A stretch of DNA of 7,513 bases from a virus (taxonomy: Duplodnaviria > Heunggongvirae > Uroviricota > Caudoviricetes), in the IMG/VR virus record IMGVR_UViG_2740892272_000010, positions 1 to 7,513 of that record, one strand, 5' to 3'. The notes below the pieces were generated by a model. The model made no database searches, was not told the origin of the DNA, and was given only the letters and a program-made list of their open reading frames with translations. Both the position numbers and the translations under genes were made by a program. Of the stretch, positions 377-687 are shown piece by piece; the first letter of the stretch is position 1, and each line of letters starts with the position of its first letter.

Positions 377-451
377 TGGAGCGGGCAGCGGGAATCGAAC
401 CCGCATCATCAGCTTGGAAGGCTGAGGTAATAGCCATTATACGATGCCCGC
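377..451 (-). tRNA. tRNA-Gly (anticodon UCC)
   Basis: Reverse complement reads GCGGGCAUCGUAUAAUGGCUAUUACCUCAGCCUUCCAAGCUGAUGAUGCGGGUUCGAUUCCCGCUGCCCGCUCCA: 7-bp acceptor stem, anticodon stem UCAGC/GCUGA, loop CUUCCAA, T-loop UUCGAUU, encoded CCA. From memory it matches or nearly matches E. coli glyT. Confidence 0.85.
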
Positions 452-454
452 ATA

Positions 455-530
455 TGGTGCCGACTACCGGAATCGAACTGGTGACCTACTGATTACAAGT
501 CAGTTGCTCTGCCTGCTGAGCTAAGTCGGC
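455..530 (-). tRNA. tRNA-Thr (anticodon UGU)
   Basis: Reverse complement reads GCCGACUUAGCUCAGCAGGCAGAGCAACUGACUUGUAAUCAGUAGGUCACCAGUUCGAUUCCGGUAGUCGGCACCA: acceptor GCCGACU/AGUCGGC, anticodon loop CUUGUAA, encoded CCA. Resembles E. coli thrU from memory, with D-loop differences. Confidence 0.8.
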
Positions 531-532
531 GC

Positions 533-609
533 TGGCCCACCACCGAGGACTCGAACCTCGCACCGTCAACTTAGAAGGTTGATGCTCTATCCGGATGAGC
601 TAGTGGTGG
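533..609 (-). tRNA. tRNA-Arg (anticodon UCU, reads AGA)
   Basis: Reverse complement reads CCACCACUAGCUCAUCCGGAUAGAGCAUCAACCUUCUAAGUUGACGGUGCGAGGUUCGAGUCCUCGGUGGUGGGCCA: acceptor CCACCAC/GUGGUGG, D-stem GCUC/GAGC, anticodon stem UCAAC/GUUGA, loop CUUCUAA, T-stem CGAGG/CCUCG, encoded CCA. Confidence 0.8.
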
Positions 610-610
610 T

Positions 611-687
611 TGGTGGCCCTTGCTGGACTTGAACCAGCGACCTGGCGATTATGAGTCGCTCGCTCTGACCAACTGAGCTAAAGGGCC
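611..687 (-). tRNA. tRNA-Ile2-like (anticodon CAU, probable lysidine tRNA reading AUA; elongator Met not excluded)
   Basis: Reverse complement reads GGCCCUUUAGCUCAGUUGGUCAGAGCGAGCGACUCAUAAUCGCCAGGUCGCUGGUUCAAGUCCAGCAAGGGCCACCA: acceptor GGCCCUU/AAGGGCC, anticodon loop CUCAUAA, encoded CCA. Close to E. coli ileX/ileZ-type sequences from memory. Confidence 0.75.

Follow-up and report, generated by a model that had tools for sequence, protein, structure and literature searches.

We analysed a 7,513-nucleotide (nt) stretch of viral DNA (IMG/VR record IMGVR_UViG_2740892272_000010; hereafter the window), which is located in Shigella sonnei Ss046 (CP000038.1, near 2.93 Mb) and carries a compact array of four transfer RNA (tRNA) genes at positions 377–687 on its minus strand. 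The array is an ordinary phage tRNA cluster of an already annotated kind. Its sequence and surroundings indicate that it is probably a phage-borne tRNA operon in the late-operon leader of a lambdoid prophage, where it would top up the tRNAs that decode AUA, AGA, ACA and GGA. The cassette is a mosaic, with an ileZ and argN-type pair shared with Shiga toxin (Stx) phages joined to exact or near-exact copies of host thrU and glyT. It occupies the same regulatory slot as the tRNA genes of Stx phages, with lysis genes following instead of stx.

Anatomy of the array

In the whole window ARAGORN calls four tRNA genes and no more, each of them on the minus strand. Every one of them also exceeds the threshold of the Rfam tRNA model RF00005 (gathering score 29 bits), with scores of 56–70 bits and E-values from 2e-10 to 3e-14, far above chance. 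In order of transcription, they are:

611–687, minus strand: tRNA-Ile2, anticodon CAU, ileZ type with encoded CCA, at the head of the operon (ARAGORN; Rfam 70.5 bits)
533–609, minus strand: tRNA-Arg, anticodon UCU, argN-type body (ARAGORN; Rfam 56.4 bits)
455–530, minus strand: tRNA-Thr, anticodon UGU, near copy of host thrU (ARAGORN; Rfam 69.8 bits)
377–451, minus strand: tRNA-Gly, anticodon UCC, same sequence as host glyT, at the end of the operon (ARAGORN; Rfam 64.9 bits)

These calls confirm, without change, the four minus-strand genes and the anticodons that a preliminary description had read from the letters of the window. The 1–3-nt spacing and the encoded CCA that it reported are visible directly in the sequence: the intergenic spacers measure 3 nt (452–454), 2 nt (531–532) and 1 nt (610), and all four genes start with TGG on the plus strand, which, read on the minus strand, is a 3′ CCA encoded in the gene itself. 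Each anticodon loop has 7 nt with U33 (CUCAUAA in Ile, CUUCUAA in Arg, CUUGUAA in Thr and CUUCCAA in Gly). ARAGORN names the CAU tRNA Met, by its anticodon alone.

On the minus strand, the order of elements is the antiterminator gene Q, a c4/antirepressor (c4/ant) module, pR′–tR′, the putative tRNA promoter pT, Ile2-Arg-Thr-Gly, a terminator-like hairpin, and genes for a holin, a lysozyme and Rz.

Regulatory setting

Five elements around the array define its position in the late region:

1921–2328, minus strand: antiterminator Q gene (Pfam PF06530, Phage_antitermQ; 75% nucleotide identity to 933W Q)
832–859, minus strand: homologue of late promoter pR′, −35 TTTACG (859–854) and −10 TATCCT (837–832), assigned by homology only
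773–801, minus strand: intrinsic terminator, equivalent of tR′, stem-loop 801–780 plus a T run (terminator scan and alignment to the 933W terminator)
697–725, minus strand: putative sigma-70 tRNA promoter pT, TTGCAG (725–720), 17-nt spacer, TATTAT (702–697), proposed from sequence only
99–118, minus strand: terminator-like hairpin plus a T run, about 260 nt past the end of tRNA-Gly (terminator scan)

Positions 771–859 of the minus strand are 84% identical to the annotated pR′–qut–terminator segment of phage 933W. Candidate promoter pT ends some 10 nt before the 5′ end of the Ile gene (a promoter scan places it one base over, at 726–697), and its hexamers are identical to those of the element annotated in 933W as ‘pT; putative tRNA promoter’. 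The same hexamers are kept in the isolated phages PhiR47_1 and vB_EcoM-606R7 (606R7) despite diverged flanks, and the −10 box also occurs in Ec 08-00022. Transcripts from pT might stop at the hairpin at 99–118; a comparable terminator is annotated behind argO in 933W.

The pR′–qut–terminator identity, the pT hexamers shared with 933W and the Q gene upstream agree with the earlier proposal that the array sits where Stx phages carry their tRNAs. The late or cargo region that had been expected beyond the start of the window stood in part: holin, lysozyme, Rz and terminase genes are there, but neither stx nor any other cargo.

Identity and origin of the four genes

We compared the window genes with K-12 thrU, tyrU, glyT, thrT, argU, ileX, ileY, metT and metU and with the annotated tRNA genes of 933W and phiP27. 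The CAU tRNA is most similar to 933W ileZ (74/77 positions, 96%), followed by ileY (71/77, 92%) and ileX (69/77, 89%), with metT/metU at 68%. Its acceptor stem, GGCCCUU/AAGGGCC as in ileY, contains C4:G69 and C5:G68, which are major identity elements for Escherichia coli TilS (PMC11947777); metT has U4:A69 and A5:U68 at the corresponding pairs. The identical gene in E. coli FDAARGOS_944 bears the label tRNA-Ile from the Prokaryotic Genome Annotation Pipeline (PGAP). Because the tRNA is closer to ileX, ileY and ileZ than to metT/metU, has the TilS pairs and carries this label, its assignment to the Ile2 type, with C34 presumably modified to lysidine, is well supported, as the preliminary description had it.

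The Gly gene is identical to K-12 glyT at 75/75 positions. The Thr gene matches thrU at 74/76, with two U to C differences at D-loop positions 16 and 20, and its anticodon arm, ACUGA-CUUGUAA-UCAGU, is identical to that of thrU. U16 and U20 of thrU are probably dihydrouridine sites. In about 26 loci, among the matches listed in the survey described below, the C16/C20 form of Thr is linked with the window-type variants of Ile and Arg, and these three variants together define a separate cassette haplotype. Most sister arrays have a Thr gene that matches thrU at 76/76 positions. The resemblance to host thrU and glyT that the preliminary description had pointed out proved accurate.

Given this exact identity, the simplest reading is that Thr and Gly descend from enterobacterial thrU and glyT. 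The earlier suggestion that the array was built partly by capture of host tRNA genes is favoured by the same exact or near-exact identity, its sole basis, but not by the surrounding DNA: outside mature Thr and Gly, the array has no similarity to the host flank of the thrU-tyrU-glyT-thrT operon, tyrU and the 116-nt host spacer are absent, and only 3 nt, TAT, lie between Thr and Gly. A search of the flanks for signs that the thrU-tyrU-glyT operon had been captured as DNA turned up no host flank, and this route was rejected. Because the units are flank-free, of mature length and end in CCA, it is conceivable, though quite improbable, that they were put together from copied mature tRNAs and not from DNA of a chromosome.

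The Arg(UCU) gene is closest to 933W argN (61/77, 79%), which carries UCG there, and then to host argU (58/77). It shares its acceptor and T arms with argN, with anticodon UCU instead of UCG, and its anticodon loop CUUCUAA with argU. It has a C1-G72 acceptor stem, A20, C35, U36 and G73, and its minimum-energy fold is near cloverleaf. The five best matches to this gene do not include argO, which puts argO below 64% identity; with a body of argN type, Arg(UCU) is ruled out as an argO orthologue. The likeness of the Ile(CAU) and Arg(UCU) pair to the Stx-phage cluster ileZ-argN-argO therefore holds for ileZ and for the argN-type body but not for argO, which has no orthologue here.

Expression model and codon usage

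In the model that we favour, a phage tRNA operon that supplements host decoding, a polycistronic precursor would be made from pT at a low constitutive level. After induction, Q-modified RNA polymerase would read through tR′ from pR′ into the tRNAs and lysis genes, giving the precursor at a high level. RNase P would cut each 5′ end, 3′ exonucleases would trim the 1–3 nt past each encoded CCA, and TilS would convert C34 of the CAU tRNA to lysidine. The mature tRNAs would then raise the decoding capacity for AUA, AGA (and AGG), ACA, and GGA (and GGG).

Codons were counted in a greedy set of long open reading frames (ORFs). Usage per 1,000 in the FDAARGOS_944 prophage, which carries the same array, and in K-12 core genes is as follows:

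ATA: prophage 11.1, K-12 core 2.8; phage/host ratio ranks 3 of 61
AGA: prophage 7.3, K-12 core 1.3; phage/host ratio ranks 1 of 61
ACA: prophage 14.1, K-12 core 5.4; phage/host ratio ranks 5 of 61
GGA: prophage 13.5, K-12 core 6.7; phage/host ratio ranks 10 of 61

All four codons are thus 2–5 times commoner in genes of the carrier prophage than in host core genes. In ORFs pooled from the flanks of 21 window-type arrays, the odds ratios are 2.0–7.3, with p no higher than 1e-10. The enrichment whose absence would have counted against the preliminary description is therefore present. The four codons had been described as rare in E. coli, which needs qualifying: ACA and GGA are minor rather than rare.

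Several observations weigh against a supplementing role. The host sample is a single 50-kb region of the K-12 core. Phage lambda has the same excess despite carrying no tRNA genes (ATA 10.0, AGA 9.7, ACA 13.1 and GGA 13.0 per 1,000), so the enrichment is unspecific, and the array offers no tRNA for CGG, TCA and AGT, codons that are equally enriched. Of the four codons, the seven Ss046 late genes that directly follow the array, where the preliminary description had proposed to look, are significantly enriched only in AGA (4.8-fold) and ACA (2.0-fold), and not in ATA or GGA. The Ss046 prophage is defective, truncated by insertion sequences IS2 and IS4, so the array can have no current role in phage growth in this strain. 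Beyond the sequence anatomy, finally, every step of the expression model is one that we infer.

Distribution and sister cassettes

A scan of IMG/VR for the Thr-Gly junction found the same cassette in at least 119 viral contigs; the census of architectures was made on the matches listed, and L-numbers below are labels of individual compared loci. Four architectures were seen among these matches:

Ile(cat)-‘Lys’(ttt)-Thr-Gly: 50 loci
Ile-Arg(tct)-Thr-Gly, the window type: 29 loci
Thr-Gly alone: 16–18 loci
Second position (slot 2) oddly called or missing: about a dozen loci

The Thr gene is exactly thrU in 81/123 of the listed loci and of window type in 26/123, and the Gly gene is exactly glyT in 105/123. 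Among 5,426 complete E. coli genomes, 63 carry at least 80% of window positions 300–760. A prophage of E. coli FDAARGOS_944 has 100% identity over 300–760 and 99.7% over 1–787; it looks intact and carries the array between a Q-like gene and a holin gene. At its distal end, this prophage (L133) bears the type III secretion system effector gene ipaHb (43761–45587), which makes the strain, named E. coli, look Shigella-like or like enteroinvasive E. coli (EIEC). PhiR47_1 and 606R7 have a version of the array that is about 94% identical, again between Q and holin, and Yersinia phage YeP1 has a looser version.

Three arrays each are present in two GTDB species representatives, S. flexneri SFBU1023 and E. 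coli ECMA0423, and two others, Citrobacter braakii and Enterobacter hormaechei, have the Thr-Gly pair. The only listed match outside Enterobacteriaceae is in Photobacterium sagamiensis (L145, 575–950), a Ser(tga)-Thr(tgt)-Gly(tcc)-Asn(gtt) cluster whose thrU-like and glyT-like ends lie 8 nt apart.

Loci with Thr-Gly alone (L019, L029, L033, L040, L056, L065 and others) have a 58-nt sequence, GGUUCCGAGGG...CCCGAGGAACCA, in place of the Ile and Arg slots. It begins right after a TATTAT box, ends in ACCA 2 nt before Thr and folds into a long hairpin (z = −1.9); Rfam gave no match to it. In another locus, L080, the Ile2 loop CUCAUAA of slot 1 has changed to CCUAUAA (anticodon UAU, C33), together with a change in the T stem. 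If functional, this tRNA would read AUA without lysidine; a decaying copy is more likely.

Variation in slot 2

A single argN-type body is found in slot 2 with three anticodons: UCG in 933W argN, UCU in the window and UUU in the ‘Lys’ form, the commonest sister haplotype. The latter form (L008 3657–3733, L009, L011 and about 55 IMG/VR loci among the matches listed) has the loop CCUUUAA, with UUU preceded by a very unusual C33, and an A51xC63 mismatch in the T stem; its minimum-energy fold is not a cloverleaf. Rfam scores for slot 2 run from 56 or 54 bits for Arg(UCU) to 40 bits for the ‘Lys’ form and no match for forms with a truncated anticodon arm. The shortened-arm forms in L013, L037, L066, L081 and L097, none of which reaches the Rfam tRNA threshold, have loops that differ at a few A/T positions only (TAAAT, TTAAT, TTTAT, CCAGG), and ARAGORN reports them as Phe(aaa), Leu(taa), Stop(tta) or ‘???’.

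Slot 2 looks as if it is decaying among the relatives of the window, more than displaying designed diversity, and the window has the intact Arg version. As a hypervariable anticodon site it was rejected, because the falling Rfam scores and the folds fit decay better than diversifying selection. It is quite improbable that the cassette is a modular tRNA platform, with one scaffold retargeted by anticodon changes. Were that so, the ‘Lys’ variant would be a functional tRNA, possibly resistant to anticodon nucleases, and changes in slot 2 would follow an arms race against defences that cleave tRNAs, the Ile, Thr and Gly slots staying fixed.

Alternative explanations

The array might instead counter host defences, by replacing host tRNAs that tRNA-cleaving nucleases destroy during lytic growth, a general hypothesis laid out previously (PMC10264068). 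Candidate nucleases are P2 Old, whose primary target is tRNA-ThrU, colicin D-like enzymes (Arg) and PrrC or PARIS (Lys). Degradation of host tRNA-Thr(UGU) is the means by which P2 Old blocks lambda, a block that phage Thr(UGU) tRNAs relieve; rescue requires altered CNG motifs and a shorter anticodon stem, and extra host tRNA-ThrU gives little or no protection (PMC12445682). The array of a lambdoid phage does carry exactly the Thr(UGU) specificity that Old targets, and the sister arrays have a Lys(UUU)-like slot 2 with the unusual C33. However, the anticodon arm of the window Thr is that of host thrU, both CNG motifs included, the Gly gene matches its host counterpart at 100%, and the Arg anticodon loop is that of argU. 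Given these host-like features, the window tRNAs are not nuclease-resistant variants, and any effect would have to be one of dosage. Taken as a whole the anti-defence explanation is quite unlikely, and a role of the window array against P2 Old in particular was rejected on the identity of the Thr anticodon arm with that of thrU.

Two other explanations concern an array that no longer serves phage growth. In one, which we judge unlikely, the array has been domesticated to the benefit of the host and is kept in defective prophages for that reason, constitutive expression from pT helping Shigella or EIEC to translate AT-rich acquired virulence genes such as ipaH and those of the virulence plasmid. 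The complete array inside an IS-truncated remnant would fit such a role, as would the three copies each in S. flexneri SFBU1023 and E. coli ECMA0423, the conserved promoter of its own, and the usage of AGA (19.7 per 1,000) and ATA (11.5 per 1,000) in ipaH of the sister prophage. That ipaH is one gene of 608 codons, however, and many copies of the array elsewhere have single changes that break stems, pointing to relaxed constraint; the near identity to the intact-looking prophage copy also means that the remnant may be young. In the other, which is very unlikely, the genes are neutral passengers, tRNA remnants hitch-hiking in a recombination-prone region with no present function. Although the series of slot-2 decay among relatives (56 bits, 40 bits, no match), the codon bias of lambda without tRNA genes and the dead Ss046 prophage are what neutrality would lead one to expect, the window has four intact genes with high scores, the Ile, Thr and Gly slots are near-invariant over more than 100 loci in several genera (by the exact Thr and Gly counts given above for the listed matches), and the pT hexamers are conserved where their flanks have diverged. 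A neutral relic fits poorly with such intact genes, such a promoter and three such slots.

Source prophage and genomic context

The element that carries the array is a defective lambdoid (lambda-like) prophage remnant, cut by IS2 and IS4. In Ss046 the order of genes is IS2, a DnaB-type helicase gene interrupted by IS2, an ORF of 85 amino acids (aa), RusA, Q and the ORF6N protein; then the four tRNAs, a class II holin, a lysozyme, Rz, HNH, the small and large terminase, the portal and IS4. The holin is the next called gene past the array, with about 680 nt of non-coding sequence between the array and the lysis genes. For a 71-aa ORF downstream of Gly (117–332, minus strand), neither the Ss046 gene calls nor the PGAP annotation of the near-identical E. 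coli region has a gene.

IS2 (region about 4418–5750) breaks the helicase gene at about 4418. Past it, in the region 5586–7513, lie chromosomal hchA (5586–6437, minus strand) and a porin gene, from which we conclude that the early half of the prophage has been lost. As one piece, the whole window is absent from the 5,426 complete E. coli genomes; it was placed in Ss046 through an exact match of the 253-aa protein encoded at 877–1638.

Between Q and the 933W-like pR′ there is a module resembling the P1 immI c4/antirepressor region, in which Rfam RNA matches are followed by an ORF6N gene:

1841–1893, minus strand: c4 a1b1 target (Rfam)
1804–1880, minus strand: isrK (Rfam)
1695–1778, minus strand: C4 antisense RNA (Rfam)
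1478–1561, minus strand: sRNA-Xcc1, a second C4-like match (Rfam)
877–1638, minus strand: gene for an ORF6N-domain protein, 253 aa

Since the sRNA-Xcc1 match falls within the 5′ portion of the ORF6N gene as annotated, the start codon of that gene may be mis-called.

Relation to known systems

That lambdoid phages can have tRNA genes behind Q has been clear since the work on Stx phages. The closest known system is ileZ-argN-argO of 933W, which, as in the window, lies downstream of Q, pR′, qut and tR′, has its own pT and precedes the late genes; the two share ileZ (74/77), the pR′–tR′ segment (84%) and an argN body in the second gene. The phiP27 cluster is ileZ-argO. The window differs from 933W in its spacers (1–3 nt versus 9–13 nt), in the anticodon of the argN-type gene (UCU versus UCG), in lacking an argO orthologue and in the added Thr(UGU) and Gly(UCC) genes. 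Further differences are that lysis genes follow after about 680 non-coding nt, with no stx or cargo, and that the c4/ORF6N module separates Q from pR′. With the K-12 operon thrU-tyrU-glyT-thrT-tufB, the window shares the mature Gly (75/75) and Thr (74/76, or 76/76 in most sister arrays) sequences; it lacks tyrU, thrT, the 116-nt spacer and all host flanks, and its Thr has C16/C20.

Other temperate phages also carry tRNA genes downstream of Q, among them SfI, with Asn(GUU)-Thr(UGU), Sf6, ST64T and P21, and an ACA bias has been reported for them (PMC3636060). These clusters have the same location and belong to the same class of phage, and SfI shares Thr(UGU) with the window; the partner genes differ. 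The lytic T4-type phage ime09 (Tequatrovirus) has Arg(UCU), a CAU tRNA labelled Met, Thr(UGU) and Gly(UCC) among nine tightly packed tRNAs, five more than the window has. These genes are 66–83% identical to those of the window and encode no CCA, which rules out a T4 origin of the array, and the T4-like Thr has an altered anticodon stem, unlike that of the window. The four anticodon specificities shared with T4-like phages reflect convergence and not a common source.

Within its own family, the window resembles the sister cassettes of PhiR47_1 and 606R7 (about 94% identical) in architecture, spacers, promoter and position between Q and holin. The sister cassettes Ile(CAU)-‘Lys’(UUU)-Thr-Gly, which many prophages carry as well, differ in slot 2 and in that their Ile is 933W ileZ and their Thr is thrU. 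The identical array is annotated as tRNA genes in the RefSeq entry of E. coli FDAARGOS_944, and sister arrays are annotated in GenBank phage genomes. We found no paper on this Ile-Arg-Thr-Gly cassette, a result that carries little weight as the older Stx-phage literature lay outside the search.

The array is a known kind of feature and holds little new biology. What is added here is its mosaic make-up, its wide spread among Escherichia and Shigella prophages, and a second slot that is changing or decaying. It also offers a natural system for asking whether a Thr(UGU) identical to thrU leaves lambdoid phages unprotected against defences that cleave tRNAs, as would be expected from the result reported for the host gene with P2 Old (PMC12445682), and whether phage tRNAs identical to those of the host may act purely by dosage.

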